Assembly: GCA_965219445.1 (NCBI GenBank)
Contig: CBDCNQ010000004.1
Location: forward strand, 1,056,001-1,120,000
Source of the DNA: Longimicrobiales bacterium
GTDB taxonomy: Bacteria > Gemmatimonadota > Gemmatimonadetes > Longimicrobiales > Gaopeijiaceae
DNA: 64,000 nt
Reading direction: 5' to 3'
Positions 10,488-52,836 of this stretch are shown piece by piece. The stretch's first letter is position 1; each line of letters starts with the position of its first letter. The position numbers and the translations under genes are program-made. Below the pieces are notes generated by a model that did not search any database, was not told where the DNA came from, and saw only the letters and a program-made list of their open reading frames with translations.

Positions 10488-11612
10488 TCAGTCACGGTTG
10501 TCGTCACTCGATCCCTGCGCTTCCATTTTCTCCTGGTAACGCGCACCGCTCAGAACGCCGGCCAGACTGTAGTTGCCCTCGTGGCAGGCGTACTCGTAGA
10601 GCTGGGCGTCCAGCTTCCTGATCGGGATCTCTCCGCCCCAAGCTTCGGTGTACAGCGTCGGATCCTCCACGGTGAACTCGTAAAGGATCGTCTCTTCGTC
10701 GACACGGGTGAAGCGCTCGGTCACCTTCATGTCCTCCGAGGGCGAGACTCCCCGGAGACGCTGTTGTGGATTGATGTTCGTGGTCTCGACTACGAGCGCG
10801 TCGCCCTCCCACCGACCCCAGGAGTTGCCGAAGTACGGACGGATGCTCTTGGGCATCGGGGTGGGCTCACCAAGCCGGATAAGCCGCGCGTCGTGAACCA
10901 TCTCCGACATGATCATCACGTGATCGGCCGTCTGTACGATGATGTAGTTGGAGTTGTACGCTCCGACAGGGATCATGGGGGGGCCGGAAGGGGAGCCGAA
11001 AAGGATGCAGCGCTCGGCGAATGGTCTCAGCTCCGGGTGGTCGTATAAGCCAAATTGGTCCCTGAAGTCCTCGTACTCCTGGACCCGCCGCTCACCCTCC
11101 GGCGTGAGGGCCGGACGGCGCCCATTCGTCGGATGGGTGACCAGAGAGGTTCTGGGCTCGCCATCGACGATCGCTACCCGCGAGCCCCGTTCCCAATAGA
11201 CCTCGTTGTACTCCGCGCCACTCAGTCGACGCTCATTACTCAGAGACTCATCCCGTTGGTTGTCTGCCCTTCCGCACGCGACGGTCCCTGGGTTAGCCGG
11301 GCACCCATCTCCTGGCCGTTCGATCTCCTCGACTTCCTCCCACGTGAACACCGGACCCTTACCCTCTTCCCGCTCGAACGGAGTGAGCGTCGAGTTCGTC
11401 CAGTTCCCCTGAAGGTCCGGATGGCCGTCGGGTGTCCTCGGGACCTCCCATTTTCCGGCGTTGGAGGCTCTGTTCTGCGCCGCCGCGGTCGAGACGACGC
11501 CGGGCGCTGCGGTCAGACAGAGAACGGCTAGAAGTAGAGCGGAGTAACGCGACATCACTTCACGGCCTCGACCACCAAGGCTTCGATCACCCACCGCAAT
11601 ACGATCGCTCAT
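10488..11612 (-). CDS. Uncharacterised secreted protein, YACHEGN family, paralogue 2
   Basis: Tandem duplicate of 9283-10413; GGAGG RBS before ATG 11612. Confidence 0.85.
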   Translation of the reverse strand: MSDRIAVGDRSLGGRGREVMSRYSALLLAVLCLTAAPGVVSTAAAQNRASNAGKWEVPRTPDGHPDLQGNWTNSTLTPFEREEGKGPVFTWEEVEEIERPGDGCPANPGTVACGRADNQRDESLSNERRLSGAEYNEVYWERGSRVAIVDGEPRTSLVTHPTNGRRPALTPEGERRVQEYEDFRDQFGLYDHPELRPFAERCILFGSPSGPPMIPVGAYNSNYIIVQTADHVMIMSEMVHDARLIRLGEPTPMPKSIRPYFGNSWGRWEGDALVVETTNINPQQRLRGVSPSEDMKVTERFTRVDEETILYEFTVEDPTLYTEAWGGEIPIRKLDAQLYEYACHEGNYSLAGVLSGARYQEKMEAQGSSDDNRD

Positions 11613-11784
11613 TTCAACCTCCGTTCCCGCGTGATCCACGACTCTGACCGGCACTCGTATCCAATAGCCCGCTGACGGCCTTATCAAATGGCCCTCTGAC
11701 CTGTGGGGATAACGTGAGGGGCAGAACCGAAGCGGTCAATATATGGGGCCCCACGGCCTGACATATGGGGCGCTAAGGCCTGAC
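11613..11784 (-). promoter_or_regulatory. Leader/promoter of paralogue 2 plus two 22-bp direct repeats
   Basis: TTGACCGCTTCGGTTCTGCCCCTCACGTTATC shared with 58592 onward; ATATGGGGC-N5-GGCCTGAC twice at 11741-11784. Confidence 0.6.
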
Positions 11785-14529: not shown

Positions 14530-14666
14530 GCCCTGGAGGGCCGGGGGGCCGGGCTAGCTGACAAGCGATTGCTACTGTCACATACAGCACGAGGGTCGCG
14601 CGCTGCGCACGCGGAGGGCAAATTGGTCACGCGTCGAAGGGTCGAAGCTCAGTGAAGGAGGGCTGT

Positions 14667-15596
14667 ATGCGGTTCGCCGTGGTCGGCACAGGCGGTGTGG
14701 GCGGGTACTTCGGGGGGCAGCTCGCTCGGGCCGGCCACGAGGTACACTTCATCGCGCGCGGTCCGCACCTTGCCGCCATCCGGGAGCACGGCCTCCGCGT
14801 CGACAGCATCGGGGGAGACTTCGTGGTCAATCCGGTGGACGCGACTGATGATTCCGCTGCCGTGGGCCATGTCGATACCATTATCGTTGCCGTGAAGACA
14901 TGGCAACTCGCGGAGGCCGCAGGGCAAGCCCGGTCCCTCGTAGGCAGCGAAACTGTCGTGCTCCCATTGCTCAACGGTGTCGACGCATCCAACGAACAGA
15001 TCGATATACTCGGCCAGGATCACGTACTCGGTGGCGTTTGCCGGATCGCGGCGGAGATCGCTGAGCCGGGTCGCATCCGTCACAGTGCGATAGAGCCTTC
15101 CATCATGTTTGGTGAGCTTGACAATTGACAGAGCGCCCGAGCGGTGGCACTTTTGGGCGCCTTGGTCGACGGGGGAATTCAGGCCGAGATCGCGCCGGAC
15201 ATCAACGTCGCGCTTTGGGAGAAGTTCATGTTGATCGCCACATGGAGTGGCATTGGCGCTGTGACCCGAGCTCCGGTCGGCGCTTGGCGTGCATCGCCCG
15301 GCTCGCGCTCGATGGCGGAAGCATGCCTTCGCGAGATTCTAGAGCTGGCCCACGCGCGCGAAGTACCCATGCCGAACGATCACGTCGTGACAATGTTGAA
15401 GGTCATCGACGGCGTCCCCCCCGAAAGCATGGCCTCCATGCAGCGAGACATCATGTCCGGGCGCCCCTCGGAGCTCGAGGCTCAAAACGGGGCAGTGCTT
15501 CGGCTCGGCGCCGCGGCAGGCGTGGCCACCCCGACGCATTCGTTCATCTACCACAGCCTGCTTCCTCAAGAGGACGTGGCCCGTAGCAATTTGTGA
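14667..15596 (+). pseudogene. panE: 2-dehydropantoate 2-reductase with in-frame TGA at 15126-15128
   Basis: GTGGVGGYFG, AVKTWQ, LLNGV, WEKF, SMQRDIMSGRPSELEAQNG; ORFs 14652-15128 and 15144-15596 share one frame. Confidence 0.85.
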
Positions 15597-20470: not shown

Positions 20471-20546
20471 GATGTCACCTCACTTCGGCGGGGTCCAAGA
20501 GACCCTGGTCAAGGAGCGTTTACGCGCGTCAGCATCACGCGTGCGC

Positions 20547-20606
20547 AAAAGAGAAGCCCCGCAGGACTCCTCGCTAGGGGGGAACCGTACGCGTCGGGGT
20601 TTTCCG
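20547..20606 (-). terminator. Possible terminator downstream of LeuD-like gene
   Basis: Minus strand GAAAACCCCG...CGGGGCTTC followed by TCTTTT. Confidence 0.35.
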
Positions 20607-20680
20607 GGGCAAGGGGTGGAAGAGGTTGTCCGGATTGGGGGCCTCGATCACCTTTCTTGCATCAGGTGATCAGGGCGCGA

Positions 20681-21289
20681 TCACGCTTCGCGACCACCAC
20701 TCTTGCTACCTGGTGACGTGGGGTTCGGCGGCGGCGGAGGTTCATTTCGCAAATCGTATATCCAGGGCCGCCTGTTCCGATCGTGGTTCCGAAACGCCAC
20801 AACATTCTCACTGTGCTGACTTAGTTCATCCAGGTCGCTCAAACCCTGTAACAGCTTGGTGCGCGCACGAGCATCTATGCTGAAGGAAATGGGGTCCATA
20901 CCTGGGACCTCGATCACCTCCCTTTCCAGGTCGACCGTCACTTCCACCCCGGGATTCGCCCCGACTCGGTCGGATATCTCCTTGATCACCTCTTCGCCCA
21001 GAGTCACCGGCAACATGCCGAAGGTCAAGCAGCTGCTGTAAAACGCCGTTCCGAAGTCGGGCGCGATAACCGCTCGAATGCCATAGGCCATGAGCCGGAA
21101 AACCTCAGACTCCGGCACTGCGCCGGTGCCGAAGCTCTCGCCAGCGAGCAGGATCGAAGCATCGTCGTAAGGCTCCTGATCGAGGCCGAAGTCCCCGTCT
21201 TCCGAGCCGTCCGGTAGAAGCGGCGCCGCTGTGCCGGTATGCCGCACAAAGCGTGGACCACTTCCTCCTGGGACCATCGGTAACTTCAC
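20681..21289 (-). CDS. Degenerate LeuD-like aconitase small subunit (paralogue A)
   Basis: FVRHTGTAAPL, ASILLAGESFGTG, GIRAVIAPDFG, VTVDLE; lacks the NVDTD segment, GSSRE replaced by GAVPE; GGAGG before GTG 21289. Confidence 0.8.
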   Translation of the reverse strand: MKLPMVPGGSGPRFVRHTGTAAPLLPDGSEDGDFGLDQEPYDDASILLAGESFGTGAVPESEVFRLMAYGIRAVIAPDFGTAFYSSCLTFGMLPVTLGEEVIKEISDRVGANPGVEVTVDLEREVIEVPGMDPISFSIDARARTKLLQGLSDLDELSQHSENVVAFRNHDRNRRPWIYDLRNEPPPPPNPTSPGSKSGGREA

Positions 21290-21353
21290 ACCGGTCCTCC
21301 TTGCGTCAGCGCCGAACGTCGACGACGAGCGCCTCCGGCGGGCTCGAATACTC

Positions 21354-21383
21354 ATTCTGGCGGGGGTAACGAGCAGCTGTCAA
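21354..21383 (-). promoter_or_regulatory. Sigma70-like promoter (copy 1)
   Basis: TTGACA-N18-CAGAAT on the minus strand; near-identical copy at 27491-27520. Confidence 0.6.
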
Positions 21384-21388
21384 GATAG

Positions 21389-21970
21389 TCAGTGGGGTTC
21401 CGGCCTTTCATCGTTTATTGGCCGGGGAGAGGCGATCGCCTCTCCCAAGAGACGATCGATCGTGCCGTCGGACAGGAGCTCGGGGTGAAGCGAGTGAGCC
21501 AGGCGGGCTCGGATCTCCATTCGGAGCTCCCGGGTGTTCTCGTCCGGCCTTCCCTGCTCCTTCAGTTGCTCGAACACGTCGACGACGGTCTCGGAAAGCA
21601 GCGTCTGTGCCCTCTCAAGCGACACGTCCCCGTCCACGGTGGGTTGCCTTCGCCCTTTCAGCACCCGGAGGTGCCTGTCGAACTCATAGCCCCCTTCGTC
21701 GAGGGTCGTCTCGACCGCTTGAGCGGTCTGTCGAACGGTCGTAAGCCGTTCCAACACCGTGTCGAGCGCGCTTCCCGCCTCGTCATCCTCGGCCGGCACC
21801 TCCTTGGACGCCCACCAGGATGCGATCCGACGAAGCTCGGCGATTCGCGCATCGATCTCCTCCGAGGTTCCCCACCGGAGCAAGAAGGCGTGGTGCTCCC
21901 GCAGGGTGGCGCCCACGTCTTGCACGCCGGCCGCTGCGCCTTGCTCCGCCTCATCGTTTCGGCGTGTCAT
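21389..21970 (-). CDS. Hypothetical helical protein
   Basis: 193-aa ORF with GGGGAG RBS and acidic helical composition; no motif recognised. Confidence 0.65.
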   Translation of the reverse strand: MTRRNDEAEQGAAAGVQDVGATLREHHAFLLRWGTSEEIDARIAELRRIASWWASKEVPAEDDEAGSALDTVLERLTTVRQTAQAVETTLDEGGYEFDRHLRVLKGRRQPTVDGDVSLERAQTLLSETVVDVFEQLKEQGRPDENTRELRMEIRARLAHSLHPELLSDGTIDRLLGEAIASPRPINDERPEPH

Positions 21971-22218
21971 CTCCCCTTTTCCTCCACCTCTGCCATCATC
22001 GACCGCCCCAACTTCCCGAGGGCGTCGGGCCTCCCGTCAAGCATGTATCTGTCGGTCGGCACCGGCAACCCCAACTGGGGCCGCCCCCGATCCCGAAAGG
22101 GGCGCGGTGCTGCCTTCGACGAGCACTCCGAAATCCTCGAAAGAGCCCGGCTGGCTCGCTTGTCCCCCCGAAGGGCCCTCAGTACCTTGTCGCTACCCAT
22201 GGGCTTCAGATCTTCCAT
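21967..22218 (-). CDS. Possible small hypothetical protein
   Basis: ATGA overlap with the next gene; no motif recognised. Confidence 0.3.
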   Translation of the reverse strand: MEDLKPMGSDKVLRALRGDKRASRALSRISECSSKAAPRPFRDRGRPQLGLPVPTDRYMLDGRPDALGKLGRSMMAEVEEKGR

Positions 22219-22257
22219 CCGTCGCCCTCGCGACCCCGAGATCATCCGTCCGGCTCC

Positions 22258-24159
22258 ATGAAGCACTCCTACCGCATCGTACTCGGCGTCTGCGCGCTGC
22301 TCGCGGTCGGCGCGGGGCTTCTTTGGAGCCCAGACGTGGACGAGGACCTGAGGGAGAACCTTCCGGAGCAGACGATGGGGGAAGGGTTCACGACCTCGGT
22401 CACGTGCCAAACGTGCCATCCGGCTCAGTACGACGCCTGGCACCGTTCCTACCATCGGACCATGACCCAGGCGGTTACGCCTTCCACGGTGCTGGGAACG
22501 TTCGACGACGTCGTCCTCGAGGACCGCGGCTACCGGTGGCGCCTCGAGCGCCGGGGCGACGAGTTCTGGGTCGAGATGCCGGACCCGCTCTGGTTCAATC
22601 AACCACCGGGGTTCATGCAGCGTTGGCCCGAGAGCCCACCGCGCTTCGAGGCCCGGGTGGTGATGACCACTGGCTCCCACCACATGCAGAACTACTGGAT
22701 ACGCCGACCGGAGGAGGCCGAAGGCCCTCTCGGGCCCGACAATGGCGCACTCGTCCAGGTCCCATGGGTCTGGCTGATTCCCGAGGGGAGATGGATCCCC
22801 AACCAGGATTCGTTTCTCAGGCCATCGAGCTCCTCCGTCCAGGGAGCGACACCCTGGAACGGTACCTGCTCCCAGTGCCACTCGGTAGGGACCGAGCCTC
22901 GGGCTCTGGAGTACCTCGGCCGCTTTGACACCCGGACGGTGGAGCTGGGCATCGCGTGCGAGGCCTGCCACGGTCCGGCCGAGGAGCACGTCCGTTTCTA
23001 TCAGTCGCCGGTGAGGCGTTATCTCCGGTATTTTCGCCAGTGGCAGGATCCGGACGCCCGCGATCCGACCATCGTCAACCCCGAGAAGCTCGAGCCCCGC
23101 CGCTCCGTGGAGACGTGCGCTCAATGCCACAGTTTCGGAGAGTGGACGGATCAGCAGGCGTACGGGAGGAATGGGGTGCCGTTCCGAGCCGGAGACGAAC
23201 TGGACGAGTACAGGTCCGTGTTCCGCTACACGGATGACCCCGAAGATCCGCTACTGCCGGAGATGCTAGGGAGCGATCCCCTCGCCCTAGAGGGCAATTT
23301 CTGGCCCGACGGAACGATTCGGGTGGCGGGTCGGGAGTACAACGGCCTCCTCGAAGACGCCCATCTCCAAGCGAGCGAGCTGACGTGCCTTTCGTGCCAT
23401 TCGATGCACGAGTACGAGGCCCCGGACACCCAGCTCGATCCCGAGGTGGCTGGAGACCGATCGTGCCTGAACTGCCACGCGGACTTCGCCGACCAGATCT
23501 CGGAGCACACCCGACACCTTCCCGAGTCTTCGGGCAGCGAGTGCATGAACTGTCACATGCCACACACCACGTACGGCCTCTTTTCAGCCATGCGGAGCCA
23601 CCGGATCGACAATCCTAGCGTTCAGGTCTCGGTGGAGAGCGGGCGTCCCAACGCGTGCAACCTCTGTCACCTCGACCAGACTCTGGAGTGGTCGAGTCGG
23701 TATCTGACGGAGTGGTACGGCCAGCCCCTTGTGGAGCTGGACGAGGACGAGCGATCCATCGCCGCCTCAATCCTCTGGACTCTGAAGGGTAATGCGGCCC
23801 AGCGCACGATCCTCGCCTGGCACCTGGGCTGGGACGCGGCTCGGGAGGCGTCGGGCGGTACCTGGATGGCCGCGTATCTAGCGCAGCTCCTCACGGATTC
23901 GTATTCGGCGACCCGGCAGGTGGCCTATCGATCGATCGTCGAACTCCCCGGGTTCGAAGCGTTCGAATACGATTATGTGGCCCTCCGTTCGGAGCTCGAG
24001 GAAAAGGCTACCGAGGCAACGGAGCGCTGGCTCGGATTCGGCGGGCCGGATCAGGCCAGGCCTCATCTTCTCATCGCCGCAAACAGCGAGATCGACGTCT
24101 CCGAGTGGCTCCGACTACTCGCGGAGCGGGACCAGCGGCCCCTGGCAATCATCGAATGA
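22258..24159 (+). CDS. Multihaem c-type cytochrome (8 CxxCH) with N-terminal membrane anchor or signal
   Basis: CQTCH, CSQCH, CEACH, CAQCH, CLSCH, CLNCH, CMNCH, CNLCH; hydrophobic N-terminus from ATG 22258. Confidence 0.9.
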   Translation: MKHSYRIVLGVCALLAVGAGLLWSPDVDEDLRENLPEQTMGEGFTTSVTCQTCHPAQYDAWHRSYHRTMTQAVTPSTVLGTFDDVVLEDRGYRWRLERRGDEFWVEMPDPLWFNQPPGFMQRWPESPPRFEARVVMTTGSHHMQNYWIRRPEEAEGPLGPDNGALVQVPWVWLIPEGRWIPNQDSFLRPSSSSVQGATPWNGTCSQCHSVGTEPRALEYLGRFDTRTVELGIACEACHGPAEEHVRFYQSPVRRYLRYFRQWQDPDARDPTIVNPEKLEPRRSVETCAQCHSFGEWTDQQAYGRNGVPFRAGDELDEYRSVFRYTDDPEDPLLPEMLGSDPLALEGNFWPDGTIRVAGREYNGLLEDAHLQASELTCLSCHSMHEYEAPDTQLDPEVAGDRSCLNCHADFADQISEHTRHLPESSGSECMNCHMPHTTYGLFSAMRSHRIDNPSVQVSVESGRPNACNLCHLDQTLEWSSRYLTEWYGQPLVELDEDERSIAASILWTLKGNAAQRTILAWHLGWDAAREASGGTWMAAYLAQLLTDSYSATRQVAYRSIVELPGFEAFEYDYVALRSELEEKATEATERWLGFGGPDQARPHLLIAANSEIDVSEWLRLLAERDQRPLAIIE

Positions 24160-24208
24160 GCGGCCGGCCCGGTGACCCGCAGGACAGGCAAAAGGCCGTT
24201 GAAGTGCC

Positions 24209-24919
24209 TCAGGGAGGATCTCGGTCACCACGAGTGTCATAGATCCAAGGCCGTAGGATCCGATCTTTGCTCCTCATCTCCGCCGCACTGTCGCTGTGCT
24301 GAAGCCGTTCATCCAGGGTGACGTCCGAGCCCCGAAGCAGATTCACGCGCCGTCTGGAGTCAATCTGGAAGGGAATGGGCCCCATACCCGGGCGCTCGAT
24401 CGCCTGTCTCACGAGGTCGACCGTCATTTCCACTTCTGGATTCGCCCTGACCCCGTCAGCGATCCTTCCGACCACCTCTTCGCCGAGAGTCACCGGCAAC
24501 AGACCGTAGTCAAAGCAGTCATCATAGAACACCGTTCCGAAGCTGGGCGCGATGACCGCTCGCATGCCGCACTGCATGAGCCGGATGACCGCAAACGCCT
24601 GTAGGCTGCCACGGCCGAAGTCCCGACCAGCGAGCAGGATCGAAGCATCGCGATAAGGCTCTTGATTGAGGACGAAATTCGGATCTTCCGATCCGTCGGG
24701 TCGATATCGGAAGCCATGAAAGGCGTGTTGCCCGGCCCATGAACCGTCGTGGGTGTGCGGCTCGAGCTCTGCCGCGCCTGGGTCTATATGCACGGCGTGA
24801 AGGTCGTGAAGCTCGGGGCCCACTGGGGCGATGTACTCGCCTTCGATGTCGCGTTGCAGGAAAGGCGCCGCGATGCCGGTATGCCGCACGAACTGGGGGG
24901 CGGTTCGAAAGATGGTCAC
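24209..24919 (-). CDS. Degenerate LeuD-like small subunit with His-rich insertion (paralogue B)
   Basis: FVRHTGIAAPF, FRYRPDGSEDPNFVLNQEPYRDASILLAGRDFG, AVIAPSFG; GSSRE replaced by GSLQA; insertion LHDLHAVHID..EPHTHDG. Confidence 0.82.
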   Translation of the reverse strand: MTIFRTAPQFVRHTGIAAPFLQRDIEGEYIAPVGPELHDLHAVHIDPGAAELEPHTHDGSWAGQHAFHGFRYRPDGSEDPNFVLNQEPYRDASILLAGRDFGRGSLQAFAVIRLMQCGMRAVIAPSFGTVFYDDCFDYGLLPVTLGEEVVGRIADGVRANPEVEMTVDLVRQAIERPGMGPIPFQIDSRRRVNLLRGSDVTLDERLQHSDSAAEMRSKDRILRPWIYDTRGDRDPP

Positions 24920-24960
24920 GACTCCTCGAGCGTTTCCTCCGGGAGCGAACTCCGGCTACT

Positions 24961-24990
24961 ACCTTGGCACGACTGACAGTTTGCTGTCAA
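24961..24990 (-). promoter_or_regulatory. Promoter with palindromic operator over the -35 box
   Basis: TTGACA at 24985-24990 (minus strand); inverted repeat TGACAG-tttg-CTGTCA at 24974-24989. Confidence 0.45.
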
Positions 24991-25042
24991 TTCAGCCTCC
25001 CGAGCCGGGCAAGGTAGGCGAGCTGCTGGCTCATCCCACGCG

Positions 25043-25075
25043 AAGAAAAGAAGAGGGGCCCCCAGGGGCCCCTCT
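25043..25075 (-). terminator. Rho-independent terminator after the leuC-leuD pair
   Basis: AGAGGGGCCC stem followed by TCTTTTCTT on the minus strand. Confidence 0.75.
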
Positions 25076-25102
25076 CGCTGCCCAGCACCGTTCCCTCAGG
25101 CC

Positions 25103-25789
25103 TCAGCGGCCAGCGCTACGATAATCATAGACCCAGGGACGCTCTCTCTCGTCCTCCGCTCTCTTCGTCCTGGCCGCCGGCAGGTGTGGATTGATTTCTT
25201 CCAGGTCGTCGATAGCGGTCAACAGCTTGTTGCGCGTTCTGGCTTCGGTCTGGAAGGGAATGGGCTCCACGCCGGGCATCTCGATCACCTGCCTTTCCAG
25301 ATCCACCGCCATCGGTATTCCCGGGTTTGCCCGGACCCAGTCCGCGATCCTATCGACCGTCGGCCTGGGAAGCTGCACCGTCAACACGCCGTACTGCATC
25401 GCGTTGGTCAAGAAGATCGGTCCGAAGCTTTGGCCGATGTATACTCGTACTCCCCACGCTGCCAGGGGCCGCGTGATCGCGCCCGAGCGCGAGCTGCCAG
25501 TGCCATAATTCAGACCAACGATCATGATCGAGGCACTGCGATACTGCTCTTGATTGAAAACGAAGTCCGGCCTTTCCGATCCGTCAGCAAAGTACCGGAT
25601 GTTGGCGAAGGCGAGCTCGGACGGGGTATCTATACCCACGCCGGCGAGGCCAGTCGCTGCACCCCCCGGACTGGAGACGTCCGTGCTCACGTTGTTAAAC
25701 ATGAAGGGTGCCGCCAAGCCGACGTGCCGTACGAAGCGTTGGCCTCCTCTTCGCGGACCTGTCTGCTGGTTAGCTTGTTGCATAGTCAT
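25103..25789 (-). CDS. leuD: LeuD-like aconitase-family small subunit (paralogue C, catalytic loop retained)
   Basis: NNVSTD, RYFADGSERPDFVFNQ, NYGTGSSRS, SFGPIF..N; starts 20 bp after the leuC-like stop. Confidence 0.85.
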   Translation of the reverse strand: MTMQQANQQTGPRRGGQRFVRHVGLAAPFMFNNVSTDVSSPGGAATGLAGVGIDTPSELAFANIRYFADGSERPDFVFNQEQYRSASIMIVGLNYGTGSSRSGAITRPLAAWGVRVYIGQSFGPIFLTNAMQYGVLTVQLPRPTVDRIADWVRANPGIPMAVDLERQVIEMPGVEPIPFQTEARTRNKLLTAIDDLEEINPHLPAARTKRAEDERERPWVYDYRSAGR

Positions 25790-25809
25790 TTCCTCTACAG
25801 GCCTCTCCT

Positions 25810-27306
25810 CTACAGGTAGGTTCGCACGTCGGCGACGTAACCGGCGATGGCCGAAGCGGCTACCGTGCTCGTGCTGGCCAGAATGGTGTTGGTGCCTCCG
25901 CCCTGGCGACCGATGTAGTTGCGATTGGAGTTCGACACGCAGCGGTTACCCCGCGTTACATAGTCGCCGTTCGAGCCGTAGCACTTCGAGCAGCTGGGCT
26001 CACGCCACTCCCATCCCGCCTCCCTGAAGATGCGGTCCAGGCCCTCCGCCTCTGCCTGACGCTTGACTGGCTGTGACCCTGGAACGACCCACGCGGACTG
26101 GATGTTCGATGCGACCCGGCGTCCGCGGACCACTTCGGCCGCGGCGCGAATATCACTGATTCGATTCTCGGCGCAGGATCCGATGAACACTTCGTCGATC
26201 GGCGTTCCCAGAATGGGCTCACCCGGGGTGAGGCGGCTGTACTCAATGGCCTGCCGCAACGTCGCCCGCTTCTCCGCGGGCGCATCGTCGGGATCGGGAA
26301 TCCGGTCGTTGATCCCTATGGCGTGCTCGGGATTGATGCCCCACGTGACCTGCGGCTCCACCCCAGTCATGTCGATCGTCTCTTCCCGGTCGAACACCGC
26401 AGCCTCGTCGGTGGGCAGGCCTCGCCAGAACCTCACGGCCTGATCCCAGTAGCGGTCCGCGGGGGCGAACTCCCGGCCCGCCAACCACTCGAACGTCGTG
26501 TCGTCGGGACCCACCATTCCCGTCAGAGAAGCCATCTCTATGGCGAGATTGCAGATCGTGAACCGGGCCTCCTGCGGAAGGGCCCGCACGACGGGACCGG
26601 CGTACTCCACCGCGTAGCCGGAGCCCGAGTCCGTACCGAGCTGGGAGATGATACGAAGGATGATATCCTTCGATCTGAGCCCGGGGCCGAGCCTGCCCAC
26701 GACGTTGACCCGCATGGTCATCGGACGGAGCCGGATGACGGTCCCCGTGCGGAGAATGTTGGTTGAGCTTTCACCTCCCCAGGAGATCAAGCCCATCGCC
26801 CCGTGCGTGCAGGTGTGGCTGTCGCCGGCACAGAGCACCATGCCCGGCTGGCTCAACCCGGTCTCGGGGCCGATGATGTGCTGGATGCCGTGTCTGGGAT
26901 CGAACTGGCCGAACGTGTTGAAGCCCAACTCCCTCATCAACTCGGCATGCTCCTCGTACGCCTGCCAGCCCCTACCCAGCGAGCGGTCCGTATACCTGTT
27001 CGGTGACGTGGAAACCCCATGGTCGGGCACGGAAAAGAAGATCTCGGGATTCGCGACCTCGACACCCTCCGCGCGCAGATCCAACACCTGATCGGGACTA
27101 CCACCGATACACCGGTCGACCTGGAGCAGATCGGTGCGGCCGCCGAGGTTAGTCACCACGTGCGCATCCCAGATCCTGTCGAACAGGGTCGTCGCCACTT
27201 GCTGGCGTTCTCGTGACGCTGACTGACCGTCGCGATCCGCGAAGGGATTGGTCGACACCGCGAACCCTGCCCCTACAGACGTCTTGATGAAGTTCCTTCT
27301 TTTCAT
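25810..27306 (-). CDS. leuC: LeuC-like [4Fe-4S] aconitase-family large subunit with twin-arginine leader
   Basis: TLFDRIWDAHVV, PDH, GDSHTCTHGAMG, FIGSC, CSKC, SNRNYIGRQG; N-terminus MKRRNFIK. Confidence 0.88.
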   Translation of the reverse strand: MKRRNFIKTSVGAGFAVSTNPFADRDGQSASRERQQVATTLFDRIWDAHVVTNLGGRTDLLQVDRCIGGSPDQVLDLRAEGVEVANPEIFFSVPDHGVSTSPNRYTDRSLGRGWQAYEEHAELMRELGFNTFGQFDPRHGIQHIIGPETGLSQPGMVLCAGDSHTCTHGAMGLISWGGESSTNILRTGTVIRLRPMTMRVNVVGRLGPGLRSKDIILRIISQLGTDSGSGYAVEYAGPVVRALPQEARFTICNLAIEMASLTGMVGPDDTTFEWLAGREFAPADRYWDQAVRFWRGLPTDEAAVFDREETIDMTGVEPQVTWGINPEHAIGINDRIPDPDDAPAEKRATLRQAIEYSRLTPGEPILGTPIDEVFIGSCAENRISDIRAAAEVVRGRRVASNIQSAWVVPGSQPVKRQAEAEGLDRIFREAGWEWREPSCSKCYGSNGDYVTRGNRCVSNSNRNYIGRQGGGTNTILASTSTVAASAIAGYVADVRTYL

Positions 27307-27331
27307 GACGTTTCCCTCCTCAAAAGCCTCT

Positions 27332-27475
27332 TTAGATCGCGATCATGCTTCTCGACCACCGCTCTTGCCACCTTGAGCCAGGTCGTTCATACCCTGTTAA
27401 TAGCTTGTTGCGCTGTCTGAGATCCATCGTGAAGGAAATAGACTCCATGCCGGGGCGCTCGATCACCTTGCGCAG
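27332..27475 (-). pseudogene. C-terminal fragment of a fourth LeuD-like gene
   Basis: RKVIERPGMESISFTMDLRQRNKLLTG matches the paralogue C-termini (REVIEVPGMDPISFSIDARARTKLLQG). Confidence 0.75.
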
Positions 27476-27490
27476 CGGGCTCCGCAACTC

Positions 27491-27520
27491 ATTCTGGCGG
27501 GGGTAAGCACCCGCTGTCAA
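27491..27520 (-). promoter_or_regulatory. Sigma70-like promoter (copy 2) upstream of the leuC-like gene
   Basis: TTGACA-N18-CAGAAT; duplicate of 21354-21383. Confidence 0.6.
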
Positions 27521-27751
27521 GATGACCCGATGGGGTTCCAGCCCTTCCTCCCTTTGGGACTGGGTTACCCCGGGGGTACGAGAGCGAGAGCCCTTTGGCC
27601 CTTGCCGGATCTAAGGCCGTTCCCTACCGTCCGTGCAACTTCAAAACGCTGAGATCGGGGAGGCTCGGCCCGTCCCCCACCTCTCCCAAGAGGCGTTCGC
27701 CCACAAGAGGTTATCGCCCACTCAGCTCCAACTCGAGATCCCAGGGTTAAA

Positions 27752-28768
27752 GTGTCGATATCCATTGAAGCAGCAGGATCCACCGAAACAGCAGGATTCC
27801 AACTCCTCAGAGAGGTGGAAGAATCCGTCGACCGGAGAGTCGTCGGACAGAAAGACACCCTGAAAGGGCTTCTGATCGCGTTCCTCACCGGTGGACACGT
27901 CCTTCTGGAGGGGTTCCCCGGAGTGGCGAAAACTCTGCTCGTCCGATCTCTCGCCGGGGCCCTACACACCTCATTCGGACGGATTCAATTCACGCCAGAT
28001 CTCCTTCCCGGGGACGTGGTGGGGGCCCCGGTCTATCATCAAGCGACGGGCGAGTTCGTCGTCCACAAGGGACCGGTGTTCACAAATCTGTTGCTGGCTG
28101 ACGAAATCAACCGGGCCCCGCCGAAGGTTCAGTCCGCCCTCCTGGAAGCGATGGAGGAGGGGAATGTCACGATCGACGGGACGACGTACGCCCTTCCGCA
28201 CCCTTTTTTCGTTCTCGCCACCCAGAATCCAATCGAACAGCACGGCACGTATATGCTCGCCGAAGCCCAGATCGATCGGTTTATGATGAAGCTGCGAATG
28301 GGTTATCCCGAGCGGGAGCAGGAACGGGAGATCATCGAGCGCATCGCCCTGAGCCCGGCCGAATCACCCGACGCCCCGGCCACCGACATGAGTGATCATG
28401 GGACTCGGGGCGCGTCACAGATCCTGGAGGCTCGGGCCGAACTCGACGGCGTGAACGTCGACCAGAAGATCCAGGAGTACGTCGTTGATCTGGTGTTCGC
28501 GACCCGGGATCCTGCTGACGCGGGTCTGTCGGACTTCGTGCCCTTACTCGAGTTCGGCGGTTCACCGCGGGCCTCCATCTTTCTAACCCGGGCAGCGCGG
28601 GCGCACGCATATCTCGCGGGTAGGGACTTCGTGCTCCCCGACGACGTGAAGGGTGTGGCTCACCCCGTCCTCCGGCATCGCCTGCGGACGACCTACGAGG
28701 CGGACGCTCAAGGAATCGACCCCGACGAGCTGATCGACCGGCTCCTGGCCGCGGTGCCTGCGCCCTAG
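27752..28768 (+). CDS. moxR: MoxR family AAA+ ATPase
   Basis: HVLLEGFPGVAKT, RIQFTPDLLPGD, LLADEINRAPPKVQSALLEAMEE, ATQNPIE, VLRHR. Confidence 0.95.
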   Translation: MSISIEAAGSTETAGFQLLREVEESVDRRVVGQKDTLKGLLIAFLTGGHVLLEGFPGVAKTLLVRSLAGALHTSFGRIQFTPDLLPGDVVGAPVYHQATGEFVVHKGPVFTNLLLADEINRAPPKVQSALLEAMEEGNVTIDGTTYALPHPFFVLATQNPIEQHGTYMLAEAQIDRFMMKLRMGYPEREQEREIIERIALSPAESPDAPATDMSDHGTRGASQILEARAELDGVNVDQKIQEYVVDLVFATRDPADAGLSDFVPLLEFGGSPRASIFLTRAARAHAYLAGRDFVLPDDVKGVAHPVLRHRLRTTYEADAQGIDPDELIDRLLAAVPAP

Positions 28769-29070
28769 GAGGGTGATCGGAAAGGGGGGCGGGTCGCGCA
28801 CAGGGCGCTTGTGCGCGTTCAGACAAGGAACGACGACGAGGCGTAGCAGAGCTACTCCGAGGAGGAGAGACGCAGGATCAACCGCACAACCGCCCTGTGC
28901 CCACAACCATGTGGAGCATGATCTTACACGTTGATGGGTTGCTGTGGCACGACCCCATCTCCGTTGTTGGAGCTCCTAGCCGTAGCGAATGCTATGGCGT
29001 CGTTGCTCCGCCTCGGAGCTAGGGCCGTGGCATCCGCAACGCGGCCCACCCCCCTTTCCGATCACCCTCC
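28768..29070. mobile_element. Non-autonomous inverted-repeat element (MITE-like), about 300 bp
   Basis: 30-bp terminal inverted repeats, 28/30 identical (GGAGGGTGATCGGAAAGGGGGGCGGGTCGC); internal 18-bp stem 28798-28815 / 28883-28900; GTAGC-GCTA(C/T) hairpins; no transposase. Confidence 0.8.
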
Positions 29071-30042
29071 ATGCCTCTTGGGAACCCGACGCGGATGTTG
29101 AGAAGCCTGCCGAGGCGTGCTCTTCGGCTGCTGGCGCGCCCTGCGCGCGACCTTCCGTCCCCGGAGCCGCTCCGGGAAGTTCGGCGGCTCGATCTGCGCA
29201 CCCGTGGATTCGTGGACTCACTCTACGTCGGTGAGTACGATTCCATCTTTCTCGGTCAGGGCATGGAATTTTCGCACGTTCGAGCCTACCAGCCCGGCGA
29301 GGACGTCCGCATGATCGATTGGAGGGTCACGGCGCGGGCCGGCACGCCTTTCGTTCGCCAGTTCATCGAGGAGCGCGACCTCCACGTCGTACTCCTCGTG
29401 GACGTCTCGGGGTCGGCCAGATTCGGTCCCGGGGAGAAGAGTCCGCAAGAGGTGGCGGCGGAGATCACTGCCGCGCTGGCCTTCGCAGCGACTCGGCACA
29501 ACGACCGAGTTTCCCTCGTACTCGTGAGTGATCGAGTCGAGCACTTCGTTCCCATAGGATCGGGGCGCAGGCATGTCTTTCGTCTGCTGACCGAACTGAT
29601 CACCCACACTCCGCAAGGGCGGGGCACCGACCTGAGCGTCGGGCTGAACCGGCTCGGCGATACCCTCCTTGGCCGGGCCACGATCTTCCTCATCAGTGAC
29701 TTCATTCAGAGCAACGCCGACGCGTCCTTGCGTAACGCGTTGATGAGGGTGGGATCCGTGCACGATCTGGTAGCGGTCCGGCTTTTGACAGCGGCCACGC
29801 TGGAGCTACCCGACGTAGGATGGGTCGAGATGAACGATCCCGAGAGTGGTCGCAGGATCATGTTCGACAGTGGGCAGCGGAAGGTACGGGAGGAGTACGA
29901 TCGTAGCGCCCTCCGAGCTCAGGCGGACACGGCGGCCCTCATTGGCGAGGTCGGGGCCGAGCTGCTCGACGTCGACACCGCTTCCGATCCGCTTGCCGCT
30001 CTCACCCGCTTCTTCCGAATGCGTGGGGGCAGGCCCCGATGA
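29071..30042 (+). CDS. DUF58 family protein
   Basis: GQGMEFSHVRAYQPGEDVRMIDWRVTAR, EERD, LLVDVSGS, FLISDF. Confidence 0.92.
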   Translation: MPLGNPTRMLRSLPRRALRLLARPARDLPSPEPLREVRRLDLRTRGFVDSLYVGEYDSIFLGQGMEFSHVRAYQPGEDVRMIDWRVTARAGTPFVRQFIEERDLHVVLLVDVSGSARFGPGEKSPQEVAAEITAALAFAATRHNDRVSLVLVSDRVEHFVPIGSGRRHVFRLLTELITHTPQGRGTDLSVGLNRLGDTLLGRATIFLISDFIQSNADASLRNALMRVGSVHDLVAVRLLTAATLELPDVGWVEMNDPESGRRIMFDSGQRKVREEYDRSALRAQADTAALIGEVGAELLDVDTASDPLAALTRFFRMRGGRPR

Positions 30043-31046
30043 GCTCCACGCTAGCGAAGGCCGCGATTCTCTTCGCCTTACACGCGACCGTGGCTACGGG
30101 CGGGGCTCAAGCACAGTCCCTGGACCTACCCTCTGAGGCCCGACTCGTCGGGTTCACGGTGGAGCCCGACGCGCCGGAGTTCGGGCACGCGTTTGACCTC
30201 CGAATCACCCTCAGGATCGGACCGGGGGTTGTCGCGTTCCTTCCGGATACGCTGGATCCGGGGGACGCCTCGGCCAGCGCAGGGACGGGGGATTGGAGTG
30301 AGACGTCCGGCCCAGCCGACTCGGTGGATATCCTGGCGCGTTATCCGGTCATGGCGTTCCTGAGCGGTCCCGTGGAGCTGCCGTGGCTGGAGCTATGGAC
30401 TCGGCCTGCAGGGGTTGGCGAAGTGGGCGGTGCGAGGCCGATGAGTGACTTGGCGGGTACCAGTTTCAGCGACGAATTCCAACCAACCCTGATTTCGGTC
30501 GGGGCCACCGAGATCACTCCGCTCGCGGAGATGGCCGAGGCGACCGGCGATCTCTTCCCCCGGCCGGCAGCGGATGTGCTCGGTGGCGAGTGGAGCATTT
30601 GGATGCTCTCGGCGGTCGCTACCGCCATCGCCGGTGCGAGTTTGGCCTGGCTCCTCATCGCCCGGCGTCGGCTGGCGAGTCGAGGCGACGCCGAACTGAA
30701 CGGGCGAGATCGTTCTCCGCGAGGTGAGGCGCTTCGTGAGCTCGATCGGATCCGGGGTCTGGGTTGGCTTACCGAGGGCCGGATGGTCGAGTTCTACGAC
30801 GCTTCGACAGGCGTGCTCCGTCGGTTCTCGGAGCAGGAGGAGGCGGATTGGGGTCTCGCCCTGACGAGCAGCGAATTGCTGGTGAGGCTCCAGGGCCGTT
30901 GGGGTTCCAGCTCCGTAGAGAATCTCGGTTCGACAATATCGGTAGCCGAGCGGGTGAAGTTTGGAGGGCATCACTCAGAGGTCGAAATCGCTGAAGGCCA
31001 CTGGATGACGATTCGTGACTGGATCGAGGGGATGGCGCAAGATTGA
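30039..31046 (+). CDS. Bat-operon-associated membrane protein
   Basis: Signal peptide, single TM, ALRELDRI..FYD..LRRF..AERVKF; overlaps both neighbours. Confidence 0.75.
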   Translation: MSSTLAKAAILFALHATVATGGAQAQSLDLPSEARLVGFTVEPDAPEFGHAFDLRITLRIGPGVVAFLPDTLDPGDASASAGTGDWSETSGPADSVDILARYPVMAFLSGPVELPWLELWTRPAGVGEVGGARPMSDLAGTSFSDEFQPTLISVGATEITPLAEMAEATGDLFPRPAADVLGGEWSIWMLSAVATAIAGASLAWLLIARRRLASRGDAELNGRDRSPRGEALRELDRIRGLGWLTEGRMVEFYDASTGVLRRFSEQEEADWGLALTSSELLVRLQGRWGSSSVENLGSTISVAERVKFGGHHSEVEIAEGHWMTIRDWIEGMAQD

Positions 31047-32041
31047 TGCGGATCGAATTCGCTCGCCCCGAATTTCTCTATCTCCTCTTGCTCCTCCCCC
31101 TGTGGGGCCTACTCGTTTGGCCGAGAACGGGGCGAGGCCTCCTGTACACGCATGGGGATCCCGGGCAGGGACCGACACGGTGGCCTGGCCTGCGATCGGT
31201 CCTGATCCGCATCGTACCACCGACCCTGAGAGCGGCGTCTTTGGCGTGTTTGGTGGTGGCACTCTCGGGGCCCGATCGAGTCGAAACAGTCGAGGAGTTT
31301 GCCCCACAGGGAATAGGTCTGGGGTTGGTCGTCGACCTCTCCAGCTCGATGTTGGCCTCGGACATGGGCGAAGGAGTCAGTCGGATTGCCATGGCCCGAG
31401 AGGAGGCCGTTCGCTTCGCCCGAGGGCGTCCCTACGATGAGATGAGCCTGATCGGCTTCGGGATGGAGGCCGTCACGAGGGTTCCAGCTACCACGGATCC
31501 GGAATTGGTGGCTCAGGGTGTCGAGTCGCTGGAGGTACAGCTCGTTCGCGACGGCACCAATATTTCGGGCGCCGTCCTGACGACCATCTCGCGGCTCCTC
31601 GAGTCGGATCGCGAACCGAGGGTCGTGGTGCTCCTGACGGATGGCGCCCATAACGGCATCGAGTTGCCTCCCCTTGCGACGGCCCGTGCTGCAGCAGCCC
31701 TGGGCGTCCGGATCCATTCCATCAGCATTCTCTCTCCGGAAGACGCACCTCTCGCTCCCGGTGCGACGATGAGGCGGCGAGGCGGCGTGGAGCCGGATTC
31801 GGATAGGGAGACCGTGCTCCAGGGCCTGGCGGGCCTGACCGGCGGACGGTACTTCCACGCGTCGAATCCCGTTGCGTTGGATTCGATCTACCGTGTGATC
31901 GACCAGATCGAGCCACAGGTCCAGCGGCTCGCCGAGCGGGACGTGTCTCACCCCGTCCGCCACTGGTTTTTTCTCTTGGGCTTGAGCCTGTTGGCGGCGC
32001 AGCTCTTGTTCCGTGGATCTCGATGGGGGCTGGTCCCATGA
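31046..32041 (+). CDS. batA: VWA domain protein, BatA-like
   Basis: FARPEFLYLLLLLP N-terminus, MIDAS DLSSSM, GTNI, LLTDG, TGGRYF, C-terminal TM. Confidence 0.85.
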   Translation: MRIEFARPEFLYLLLLLPLWGLLVWPRTGRGLLYTHGDPGQGPTRWPGLRSVLIRIVPPTLRAASLACLVVALSGPDRVETVEEFAPQGIGLGLVVDLSSSMLASDMGEGVSRIAMAREEAVRFARGRPYDEMSLIGFGMEAVTRVPATTDPELVAQGVESLEVQLVRDGTNISGAVLTTISRLLESDREPRVVVLLTDGAHNGIELPPLATARAAAALGVRIHSISILSPEDAPLAPGATMRRRGGVEPDSDRETVLQGLAGLTGGRYFHASNPVALDSIYRVIDQIEPQVQRLAERDVSHPVRHWFFLLGLSLLAAQLLFRGSRWGLVP

Positions 32042-33162
32042 CGTTTCTGGATCCGTCGTTCTTCCAGGTCGGAGTGGGGCTGACCGCACTCGTCCTCGTC
32101 GGTCTCCTGAGCCACGCGGGGCGCCGACGCCGGTTGGCCGATTTCATCGGTGGACGACGGGCGGTCCATCGGCTCTCTCGGTCCGACCTGTACCGGCTCC
32201 GGGTTGAACGGGCTCTTCTGCTGGGGATCGGTGGCTTGGCACTCGCCGCCGCAGCGGCGGAGCCGCACTGGTCGGGATCTCCCGAGCTGCCAGCGGTGAA
32301 CAGCGTAGTCCTCGGGATCGACGTATCGGCGTCGATGCAGGCAGTCGATGTAGCTCCGACCAGACTAGCGCGGGCCGTAGAAGTCGCAGGCGAGTTGCTC
32401 GACGCCCTCGAAGATCACCGGGTGGGGCTCGTGCTCTTCGCGGGCACCGGATATTCCATCGCACCACCAACGCACGACCACCAGGCCCTTCGTTCCCTGC
32501 TGGAGGGTGTGACACCGACGATGGCGAGTGCGTATGACCCGGGGTCGCTCCTGTCGGCCGGAATCGAAGAGGGGATCTCGCTCCTCGGGCGCCAAACGCC
32601 TCTGGCTGTCGAGACGGACGGGCTGGGGGTCGGCGCCGATACGGTGGCTCAGGAGCGGGAGGGGGAACAGCTCATCGTGCTGCTCACCGACGGTGAGGCC
32701 GGCGAGGCCGACGGGGATGTGTCGCGAGCGGTCGAGATGGCCCTGGAAGCCGGGATCGGGATTCACACGATCGGTGTTGGCACGGAGCAAGGTGCGGGCA
32801 TGATCATGCCTGCCAGCGCGTACCAGATCGGCGGCCCGGTTCTGGACGCGACGGGGTCCCCGAGCACTTCGCGGCTTCGGGAACCGCCCCTTCGTGATTT
32901 GGCAGCGGCCGGCGGCGGCCGATATGCGAACGCCGGAAGCGGAGCCCAAGTCCGGGCGCTCACGGGAGAGCTCCAGGCATCGGGATTGATCCGGCAACAG
33001 AATCCCGGCGACGAGGTGCCTGGCTGGGCCCGTTACGACCTCCCGTTCCTTCTGGGCCTCGTGGCGCTCGTCCTTATTCTGACTGAGAGCTTGCTCGATA
33101 TGACCCTGCCGGAGCGCTGGTCTTCGCGTATACGGGAATGGGCATGGGGGAAATCGGCATGA
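32038..33162 (+). CDS. batB: VWA domain protein, BatB-like
   Basis: DVSASMQAVDVAPTRL, RVGLVLFAG, LLTDGE, HTIGVGT..G. Confidence 0.85.
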   Translation: MTFLDPSFFQVGVGLTALVLVGLLSHAGRRRRLADFIGGRRAVHRLSRSDLYRLRVERALLLGIGGLALAAAAAEPHWSGSPELPAVNSVVLGIDVSASMQAVDVAPTRLARAVEVAGELLDALEDHRVGLVLFAGTGYSIAPPTHDHQALRSLLEGVTPTMASAYDPGSLLSAGIEEGISLLGRQTPLAVETDGLGVGADTVAQEREGEQLIVLLTDGEAGEADGDVSRAVEMALEAGIGIHTIGVGTEQGAGMIMPASAYQIGGPVLDATGSPSTSRLREPPLRDLAAAGGGRYANAGSGAQVRALTGELQASGLIRQQNPGDEVPGWARYDLPFLLGLVALVLILTESLLDMTLPERWSSRIREWAWGKSA

Positions 33163-33893
33163 CGAAATACGTCTTGGTGGCCACGATCCTTCTGGCGATT
33201 TTTTTGCTCTGGCGGGATCATCACAGCCTCGAGCGCGGCAATCGGCTCTACCGGGCCGGCGATTCCCCGGGCGCTGCGGAAGTCTATCGGGGTTCCGAGA
33301 GGGCGGGCGATGCGCTCCCGACGGTGGAATACAACTTGGGTACGGCCCTCCTTCAGATCGATCCGGACTCCGCGCAGGCCTACCTTATCCGGGTGGCGGA
33401 AGGGGAGGATCGTACGACCGCTCAAAAGGCCTTTTACAATCTAGGATACCGCTTCCTTACGGCAGTCCAGAACCCCATGGAGCTCGACGCTACCGTGAGT
33501 GCTCTGAGGGCAGCGGTCGCGAGCAATCGGTTGGCCCTTCGCCTCGATCCCGCCGATGAGAGCACCCGCTGGAACCTGGCTCTGGCGCAGGACTGGCTCG
33601 ACGCGCTGGCTCCGCCCGAGGAAGAAGAAGAGGTCCCCAGTTCGGGTGCGGAATCAGGCGACGAACCGGAGAATACGGGGGTCATCATTTCCGCCCCACG
33701 TCGGGGCGCGGTCGAGGGCGAACGTGAAGCTCTGGCCGGCCAGGATCCAGGGCCCATGAGCGCAACGGAGGCGTCCGGCCTGCTGGAAGCCGTAATCGAC
33801 GAGCCCGAATCTCTCATGAGAAGGATTCTCTGGTCTCATCGGCCGGACGTCCCCTGGTGGGAGGCCCAAGCGTACCCCGGGGGTGGATGGTAG
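33159..33893 (+). CDS. TPR protein, BatC-like
   Basis: GNRLYRAG, YNLGTALL, AFYNLG, ALRLDPADESTRWNLALA. Confidence 0.8.
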   Translation: MTKYVLVATILLAIFLLWRDHHSLERGNRLYRAGDSPGAAEVYRGSERAGDALPTVEYNLGTALLQIDPDSAQAYLIRVAEGEDRTTAQKAFYNLGYRFLTAVQNPMELDATVSALRAAVASNRLALRLDPADESTRWNLALAQDWLDALAPPEEEEEVPSSGAESGDEPENTGVIISAPRRGAVEGEREALAGQDPGPMSATEASGLLEAVIDEPESLMRRILWSHRPDVPWWEAQAYPGGGW

Positions 33894-49577: not shown

Positions 49578-49604
49578 GCGGTTCCGCGAAGGCGGCGTGT
49601 CCTG

Positions 49605-50513: not shown

Positions 50514-50556
50514 GCAGCACTGGGGATCACGGGGCGCCCAGCCTCAGGGGGGAGGA

Positions 50557-52441: not shown

Positions 52442-52836
52442 ACCGACCCTTCGTAGGACGCCCAGGCCACGTGCGACTCGTGAAGCGTCACGCTCAGCCG
52501 CTGGAGACCCTGCGCTCCGTCTCCGAGGTGGCCCCCTCGGATCGCTTCTACGAGCCGATCGAAGATGGTGCGCGCCAGGAACTCGGTCGTCGTGTTCTGC
52601 CCCGTGAACGCCACCTCGTCGTCCAGGTTCCGGTAGTCGAGCTCCGCGAGGACCGCCTTCAGGCTCGCGCTGGCGAGCCCGATGTCGACGACCAAGCCGT
52701 CAGCGTCGAGCTCGTCGCGCCTGAAGGTGGCGTCGACCACGTAGGTGGCTCCGTGGAGCCGCTGGGCCGGTCCGAAGACCTCGCCCCGGAAGCTGTGGGC
52801 GATCATGAAGTGATCGCGAACGTTCAAGCTATACAA
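52438..52836 (-). CDS. 6-pyruvoyl-tetrahydropterin synthase / QueD (COG0720) homologue, FGPAQ-type subfamily
   Basis: [32 protein letters not shown]; no CxxxHGH motif; TTG start after GGAG. Confidence 0.88.

Follow-up and report, generated by a model that had tools for sequence, protein, structure and literature searches.

The gene cluster described here lies in a 64,000-nucleotide (nt) stretch of the genome of a Longimicrobiales bacterium (contig CBDCNQ010000004.1, positions 1,056,001 to 1,120,000 of the forward strand), referred to below as the window; coordinates are those of the window unless a contig or locus is named. The central gene (25810..27306, minus strand) encodes a LeuC-like large subunit of the aconitase family, 498 amino acids (aa) long, in which a twin-arginine leader (residues 1 to about 23; MKRRNFIKTSVGAGFAVSTNPFA) precedes a LeuC core starting at about residue 40. 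Three genes for LeuD-like small subunits lie on the same strand: LeuD-1 (class A, 228 aa, 25103..25789), which begins 20 nt past the stop of the LeuC-like gene, LeuD-2 (class B, 236 aa, 24209..24919), and LeuD-3 (class C, about 198 aa, 20681..21277; the open reading frame, ORF, reaches 21355, M27 being the likely start). All genes of the cluster are on the minus strand, an octahaem cytochrome gene alone being on the plus strand. Sequence comparison makes it moderately probable that the LeuC-like/LeuD-1 pair is a [4Fe-4S] hydro-lyase exported through twin-arginine translocation (Tat), acting in the periplasm on a carboxylate other than isopropylmalate, and that the class B and class C proteins are non-catalytic.

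The ORF of the large subunit opens with MKRRNFIK, the string KRRNFIK being followed by TSVGAGFAVS. An earlier note on this DNA, drawn from the letters of the sequence, had reported this opening and a short hydrophobic stretch ahead of the LeuC start; both are present, and a Shine-Dalgarno-like GGAGG, also read from the sequence, is found at 27315..27319 (minus strand), 8 nt 5' of the ATG at 27306. The leader thus appears to be translated from a good ribosome site. No Met occurs at the canonical LeuC start position. The twin arginines are encoded by AGA AGG (27304-27297, codons 2-4). Both codons are expected to be rare in a 62% G+C genome, an expectation formed without a codon count. The window leader has the layout of a Tat motif, with a twin-arginine motif followed by an h-region and a c-region, and the leader h-regions of its homologues are glycine-rich. 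One article defines an S/T-R-R-x-F-L-K-like motif for Tat signals and describes their h-region as glycine-rich (PMC7317946). TatC (PF00902) is encoded in the same genome (207.6 bits; G000:C4:591952-592584).

The leader is shared by a large set of homologues. The first 98 of the 120 best database matches (49-91% identity) group with the window protein, and the opening M-[KR]-R-R-x-F-[ILV]-[KR]-T-S-x-G-A-G is found in 83 of them, the other 15 being short or N-terminally cut entries; a survey of homologues for the twin-arginine leader, as proposed in the earlier note, therefore came out in favor of conservation. Matches 99-120 are leaderless LeuC proteins of 462-495 aa. When 18 diverse members are aligned, R3, R4 and F6 never vary. 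A phylogeny was built with FastTree from 121 sequences, each of at least 455 aa. Of 12 leaderless LeuC proteins picked as outgroup sequences, 11 entered it, by the count of 121. They come from a set of 80 genome-contig loci that was of no use for synteny: the search patterns suit canonical LeuC as well, and all 80 encode leaderless LeuC with 42-51% identity. The 83 twin-arginine tips and three truncated tips form one clade with support 1.0, apart from both canonical and PRK12466-like LeuC, and leaderless PRK12466-like LeuC proteins are its sister group. Since the leader-bearing tips form a single clade and the sister group is leaderless, the leader was gained once, and then retained. Over 84 leaders, the Kyte-Doolittle mean of the best 10 residues is 1.72 (range 0.95-2.39). 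Small-x-small sites are found in 63 of the 84, a perfect lipobox (LAAC) in two, and a third leader reads FIAC; a lipobox is meaningful only after translocation, and therefore counts toward export.

The large subunit is an aconitase-family protein. It matches the Pfam Aconitase model (PF00330) with 402 bits (cut-off 28.7), residues 44-489 covering profile positions 2-463 of 463. Residues were compared in an alignment of the 18 clade members, canonical LeuC and three leaderless relatives. The cluster cysteines C378 (GSCAENR), C439 and C442 (CSKC) are invariant, as are the catalytic residues D95-H96, H143, D162-S163-H164-T165, E257, N461-R462 and R467; N253 is nearly so. Catalytic and cluster motifs also line up with those of 4kp2, a solved large subunit of homoaconitase. 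The HEVTS-type segment that follows the DRH motif in canonical LeuC reads CIGGSP in the window protein, and is hypervariable across the clade (HHMADN, NIMxDG, MMxPDx, HFIHDL). The Fe-S cysteines, DSHT, CIGGSP and GSCAENR are all located, in the alignment with LeuC, where the earlier note had placed them.

The canonical leucine genes of this genome lie elsewhere. As the earlier note had remarked, no leuA or leuB was detected in a Pfam scan of 49 window ORFs; the separate canonical set for which it had suggested looking exists, leuA, leuB, leuC and leuD lying in a row beside ilv genes on another contig, each above the NCBIfam equivalog cut-off (676.2>598.7, 448.7>353.2, 765.3>560.25 and 259.9>116.25, respectively). 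The window protein is about 45% identical to this canonical LeuC, and fails the leuC equivalog TIGR00170 (464.5<560.25, vs. 765.3 for the canonical protein). It passes the cut-off of NF009116 (PRK12466; 544.1>531), a model which does not separate the two, as canonical LeuC also passes it (737.8). The large subunit is a paralogue of canonical leuC, not the leucine enzyme. Its ratio of nonsynonymous to synonymous substitution rates (dN/dS), measured against the orthologue in genome G006, is 0.39. In total, the genome encodes four aconitase-family large domains and six Aconitase_C domains.

The comparison of LeuD-like genes covered 26 distinct loci, of which 16 come from metagenomes, nine are stretches of eight other genomes, and one is the window. 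The metagenome loci derive from a DNA-pattern scan which returned 52 loci, about half with a leader-bearing LeuC-like gene, three being duplicates. The earlier note had counted three full LeuD-like genes and a fourth fragment; all four are there, but they are not equivalent. All three full proteins match Pfam Aconitase_C (PF00694, cut-off 22.8) with 60.3 (LeuD-1), 51.1 (LeuD-2) and 34.5 bits (LeuD-3), and all fall below the TIGR00171 cut-off of 116.25 (92.6, 102.2 and 88.3, respectively). The catalytic G-S-S-R motif, which we take to hold the equivalents of aconitase Ser642/Arg644, is kept by LeuD-1 alone (GTGSSR), the corresponding strings being GRGSLQ in LeuD-2 and GTGAVP in LeuD-3. A C-terminal RPW[IV]Y tail, missing in canonical LeuD, is common to the three classes. 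No signal peptide was found on any LeuD-like protein in the loci compared.

Class A proteins are marked by NV[SD]TD..P and G[TA]GSSR, and LeuD-1 keeps both as NVSTDVSSP and GTGSSR. A script placed their gene immediately downstream of that for the large subunit in 24 of the 26 loci, and inspection by eye added one locus. After NV(D/S)TD, the loop of LeuD-1 reads VSSPGGAA; canonical LeuD reads IIPKQFLK there. Class B proteins feature DVEGE[YF]IAP, G.GS[LQ]QAF and a His-rich insertion with five invariant His; in LeuD-2, GSLQ replaces GSSR and the His-rich insertion replaces the substrate loop. Among the 15 loci with [CS]I[GA]G.P in the large subunit, 11 have class B after class A, both loci from the phylum of the Holophagales genome included; of the other four, three run into a contig edge. 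An AlphaFold2 model of LeuD-2 had a mean predicted local distance difference test (pLDDT) score of 38.7, too low to model the His-rich loop. Class C proteins have lost the N-terminal substrate loop and read GSAPESE or GAVPESE, the latter in LeuD-3, at the GSSR position. Their gene is found upstream of the large subunit in three loci. LeuD-3 is 76% identical to the class C protein encoded upstream of the LeuC-like gene in G006 (dS 0.39). Against G006 orthologues, dN/dS amounts to 0.20 in LeuD-1, 0.33 in LeuD-2 and 0.36 in LeuD-3. The values of 0.33-0.36 indicate that the degenerate class B and C copies are maintained, not decaying. Because catalytic Ser and Arg are missing, LeuD-2 and LeuD-3 are unlikely to be ordinary alternative catalytic subunits, and may rather be non-catalytic partners with an assembly, regulatory or metal-binding role.

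The fourth LeuD fragment of the earlier note, a 62-aa ORF at 27332-27520, is indeed a LeuD remnant, but an internally deleted one: a class C pseudogene (27338..27550, minus strand) in the ancestral upstream position. Three DNA blocks (27550-27475, 27468-27378 and 27338-27373) are 78-89% identical to the LeuD-3 locus and are separated by two internal deletions; a promoter-like TTGACA-18-CAGAAT is present, as before LeuD-3. The intact LeuD-3 gene lies 4.4 kb downstream of the position of the remnant. Traces of a second system were noticed elsewhere in the genome: an orphan class A LeuD-like gene (220 aa, GAGSSR, RPWIYQ tail; G000:C4:849339-850179, or locus L044 6339-7179) adjoins what is left of a second LeuC of the leader clade, 58 aa from its C-terminus, and the two look like a decayed second copy of the system. 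A 437-aa protein, P0174, in which the leader is joined to a LeuD domain, was considered as a natural fusion and discarded, since it looks like the product of a deletion or frameshift.

LeuD-1 and LeuD-2 are separated by a 180-nt spacer, absent in relatives, which holds an intrinsic-terminator-like hairpin just 3' of LeuD-1 (25051..25076, minus strand; 11 pairs, 8 of them G-C, then a T-rich tail). The overall fold of the spacer is ordinary (z = -1.09). That it might be a repeat was rejected, the spacer being single-copy in the genome. The LeuC-like gene, LeuD-1 and LeuD-2 are covered, with 95-99% identity, by RNA-library contigs from four metatranscriptome runs (two studies). These contigs stem from related strains, and bridge LeuD-1 to LeuD-2, skipping 24919-25100; in runs X2 and X3 contigs also join LeuD-2 to the start of LeuD-3, with 158 other letters in between in X3. 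Where contigs do not cover the region 20500-27800 (27332-27800 and most of the cytochrome gene), this is no sign of silence.

Members of the clade are rare and patchily distributed. Three of 61 close relatives have a full-length match, as do four of 401 genomes sampled from the same phylum, all of one family; two of 401 genomes sampled from the phylum of the Holophagales genome have full-length matches with 77-78% identity. Longimicrobiales, Acidobacteriota and Gammaproteobacteria are among the source names given in the protein clusters. Between these groups canonical LeuC shares only about 45% identity, which makes horizontal movement of the leader clade probable.

The octahaem c-type cytochrome gene (22258..24159, plus strand) is convergent with LeuD-2. 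It encodes 633-634 aa with eight CxxCH motifs and, at the N-terminus, a membrane or signal segment; nine distinct loci have it beside the cluster. Between it and LeuD-3 lies the gene of a conserved 193-aa protein, predicted all-helical and linked to the cluster (21389..21970, minus strand; motif LREHHAFLLRWGTSEEI). Nine distinct loci encode homologues; all are on the LeuC strand, those of four loci immediately upstream of the LeuC-like gene. No Pfam, NCBIfam, fold or Atlas match was obtained for this protein, the AlphaFold2 model of which (pLDDT 68.7) has no Foldseek match in PDB at E<=0.001; its candidacy as a Tat proofreading chaperone of the TorD/DmsD type was dropped, having no family, fold or Atlas support.

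No flavoprotein is adjacent to the cluster in the window. At other loci (L043, L180, L167, L182) it is flanked by an FAD_binding_2 flavoprotein with a twin-arginine leader and a 312-335-aa partner; in L043 (6439-9027) and L180 (3866-6501) the flavoprotein gene, then that of the 312-335-aa protein, which has no Pfam match, lie directly upstream of the LeuC-like gene. The two are a candidate exported reductase pair. Exported FMN_bind proteins occur near the cluster in L130 and L184, pyrroloquinoline quinone (PQQ) dehydrogenases in L141, L154, L165 and L185, and a TonB-dependent receptor in L131. The common denominator of the neighbors is an extracytoplasmic context, no specific redox partner being conserved.

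Other features of the window were recorded. Two class I/II pyridoxal phosphate aminotransferases have twin-arginine leaders (4330-5682, plus strand, NRRAFLKSAGVTAVLGAVGTKSASA; 5756-6904, minus strand, MSLTRRGFAQTVGMGTAGVL), the second being nearest to PRK09105 and to the model of the pyoverdine transaminase PtaA, below the cut-offs (255 and 227 bits). Judged from such leaders, the genome seems to export several usually cytoplasmic enzyme types. A BatA-like aerotolerance operon (27752-33893, plus strand), encoding a MoxR AAA ATPase, a DUF58 protein and several proteins with von Willebrand factor A domains, is divergent from the cluster. The same operon adjoins the cluster in G006 and in loci L167 and L154, and its presence in several loci is probably due to shared ancestry of the region. 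G+C content is 69-74% at 48000-53000, vs. about 62-65% elsewhere, and this interval holds glycosyltransferase, methyltransferase and RibD_C genes. The N- and C-terminal domains of ketopantoate reductase (ApbA) reside in consecutive ORFs (14652-15128 and 15144-15596, plus strand), which suggests that a stop codon or frameshift divides panE. Three paralogous ORFs of about 375-400 aa (9283-10413 and 10488-11687, minus strand; 58683-59807, plus strand) begin alike (MSNR[IV]AVG.RG...) and match no Pfam family.

The window system resembles LeuCD (TIGR00170/TIGR00171) in the two-subunit aconitase-superfamily architecture, in the three Cys ligands, DSHT, Asn/Glu and NRN..GR of the large subunit, and in the GSSR of the adjacent small subunit. 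It differs in the twin-arginine leader, in CIGGSP for HEVTS, in the replaced small-subunit loop and the RPW[IV]Y tail, in having no leuA/leuB context, in scores below the equivalog cut-offs, and in the extra non-catalytic LeuD paralogues. Leaderless PRK12466-like LeuC proteins, nearest in the tree, are 50-53% identical to the window protein, share GDSHTCTHG, and are of the same overall length, minus the leader, which they lack; they read HDLGG where the window protein has CIGGSP. One of them is source-named as a Bradyrhizobium diazoefficiens protein, and to our knowledge the function of these paralogues is uncharacterized. The HEVTS-type segment and the LeuD loop presumably line the variable side of the substrate, as in LeuCD and homoaconitase. 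As the substrate-lining segments of both subunits are replaced, the substrate may be a hydroxy- or enoyl-carboxylate other than isopropylmalate, which agrees with the non-leucine substrate put forward in the earlier note.

Cofactor-loaded heterodimers can cross the membrane through Tat on one signal peptide, as hydrogenase small and large subunits and DmsAB do. The window system is similar in that the Fe-S subunit has an RRxF[LI]K leader and the gene of a signal-less partner is adjacent, and dissimilar in that no recognizable proofreading chaperone was found for it. By this route the LeuC-like subunit would fold and take up its [4Fe-4S] cluster in the cytoplasm and bind there the signal-less LeuD-1; the one leader would then let Tat move the pair across the membrane, and in the periplasm the pair would hydrate or dehydrate a carboxylate that is not isopropylmalate, with classes B and C as non-catalytic partners. 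More speculatively, in several loci the product might feed a neighboring exported flavoprotein or cytochrome, and so couple the enzyme to extracytoplasmic redox metabolism. An analogous arrangement is found in Shewanella woodyi, where histidine betaine trimethylammonia-lyase is reported to be a periplasmic lyase which feeds urocanate reductase, an adjacent periplasmic flavin reductase (bioRxiv 10.1101/2025.08.13.670108). The likeness lies in an exported lyase making an enoate for a neighboring flavoprotein, FAD_binding_2 proteins with a twin-arginine leader, or FMN_bind proteins, flanking the cluster in L043, L180, L182, L130 and L184; the S. woodyi lyase is of another enzyme family and Mg-dependent, and the parallel is an analogy, with no membership implied.

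We know of no characterized aconitase-family enzyme (aconitase, LeuCD, homoaconitase, DmdAB, AcnX types) that is not cytoplasmic or organellar. No report of a Tat-dependent or periplasmic aconitase-family enzyme, nor of such an enzyme as a known Tat substrate, was found in the literature; PMC6110883 only lists an 'extracellular' aconitase from an in-silico screen. The window protein would thus likely be the first member of the family to work in the periplasm.

Several observations weigh against export and periplasmic activity. The earlier note had cautioned that the h-region is weak, and fairly so: its best-10 hydropathy is 1.17, rank 13 of the 15 genome ORFs with RRxF[LIVM][KR], a value exceeding that (1.02) of a 1013-aa RRxF ORF taken, without a family scan, for a molybdoenzyme. 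The c-region of the window leader reads NPFA/D, and the Pro at -3 makes a poor signal-peptidase site. The Pfam TAT_signal model (PF10518) gives 12.5 bits for the window protein, below the cut-off of 22.7, with 12 of the 22 aligned members reaching E<=5, and TIGR01409 matches 6 of the 22 (best E 0.0067), both being short models of little power. Aconitase-type clusters with an exposed iron are oxygen-labile, and thus awkward in the periplasm of a probably aerobic organism. The RNA-library contigs are no proof of transcription. As for redox coupling, cytochrome and flavoprotein neighbors vary between subclades, and none among the octahaem cytochrome, the 193-aa protein, flavoproteins, FMN_bind proteins, PQQ dehydrogenases and the TonB receptor is found in the two loci of the phylum of the Holophagales genome; since these neighbors vary and are missing there, they lend coupling little support.

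Some of these points would fit an enzyme which stays in the cytoplasm, its leader being vestigial, or a chaperone-binding peptide that serves to insert the cofactor or to dock at the membrane. In nitrate reductase, the NarG subunit is not exported, although a remnant of a Tat motif persists in it; as in the window protein, a twin-arginine N-terminus is found there on a cofactor-containing subunit. The weak h-region and poor cleavage site of the window copy, the sub-threshold scores of the Pfam and TIGR models, the cytoplasmic or organellar location of known family members, the lability of the cluster and the linked 193-aa helical protein, which could be a dedicated chaperone, all suit this view. 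Yet remnant motifs do not have a working h- or c-region, while the leader clade keeps the full n/h/c layout (mean hydropathy 1.72 over 84 leaders), with lipobox variants (LAAC in two) and small-x-small sites in 63 of 84, sensible only after translocation; moreover, the neighbors are exported proteins, and no TorD/DmsD-like fold is seen for the 193-aa protein. Retention in the cytoplasm is therefore judged unlikely, and even less credit is given to an exported protein which is not a hydro-lyase at all, the [4Fe-4S] domain and degenerate LeuDs forming, for the octahaem cytochrome next to them, a module of binding, sensing or electron transfer. In favor of such a module, catalytic Ser/Arg are lacking in two of the three LeuD-like partners, the new loop of LeuD-2 has five invariant His, and the cytochrome is adjacent in nine loci; but nearly every locus retains both the full catalytic set of the large subunit and a LeuD with GSSR, loci from the phylum of the Holophagales genome and other subclades lack the cytochrome, and three Cys ligands with a free iron are typical of catalysis, not of electron transfer.

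An ordinary second isopropylmalate isomerase serving leucine synthesis, with a mis-called start and LeuD copies which are decaying duplicates, is very improbable and already contradicted. It could draw on the NF009116 score, above cut-off, and on the pseudogene among the LeuD copies. NF009116 is undiscriminating, however, and the score falls short of the leuC equivalog cut-off; the canonical start position has no Met, and GGAGG stands before the leader ATG; members from different phyla share the leader, and the substrate segments are replaced; LeuD-2 and LeuD-3 have dN/dS values of 0.33-0.36 and orthologues in many loci. Export of a catalytic LeuC-like/LeuD-1 pair remains the reading that we prefer. 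A broader proposal is tentative, and held with more doubt than belief: that these loci represent an unrecognized extracytoplasmic branch of the aconitase superfamily, in which a Tat-exported catalytic LeuC/LeuD pair with dedicated non-catalytic LeuD paralogues, one with a His-rich metal-binding loop, would interconvert an environmental hydroxy-carboxylate and an enoate in the periplasm, act as a coupling enzyme whose partners are exported flavoprotein reductases, PQQ dehydrogenases and multihaem cytochromes, and have spread horizontally among marine and sediment Gemmatimonadota, Acidobacteriota and Gammaproteobacteria.

Should export hold true, the Fe-S hydro-lyase chemistry of the aconitase family would extend to the periplasm, and a new cofactor class would be added to the cargo of Tat. 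The system would offer a cloneable test case for the survival of an oxygen-labile, solvent-exposed cluster outside the cytoplasm, and for the role of catalytically dead LeuD paralogues. Since proteins of the clade are named '3-isopropylmalate dehydratase large subunit' or 'aconitase family protein' in public sources, leucine-pathway reconstructions in these lineages count a gene which is probably not a leucine gene.

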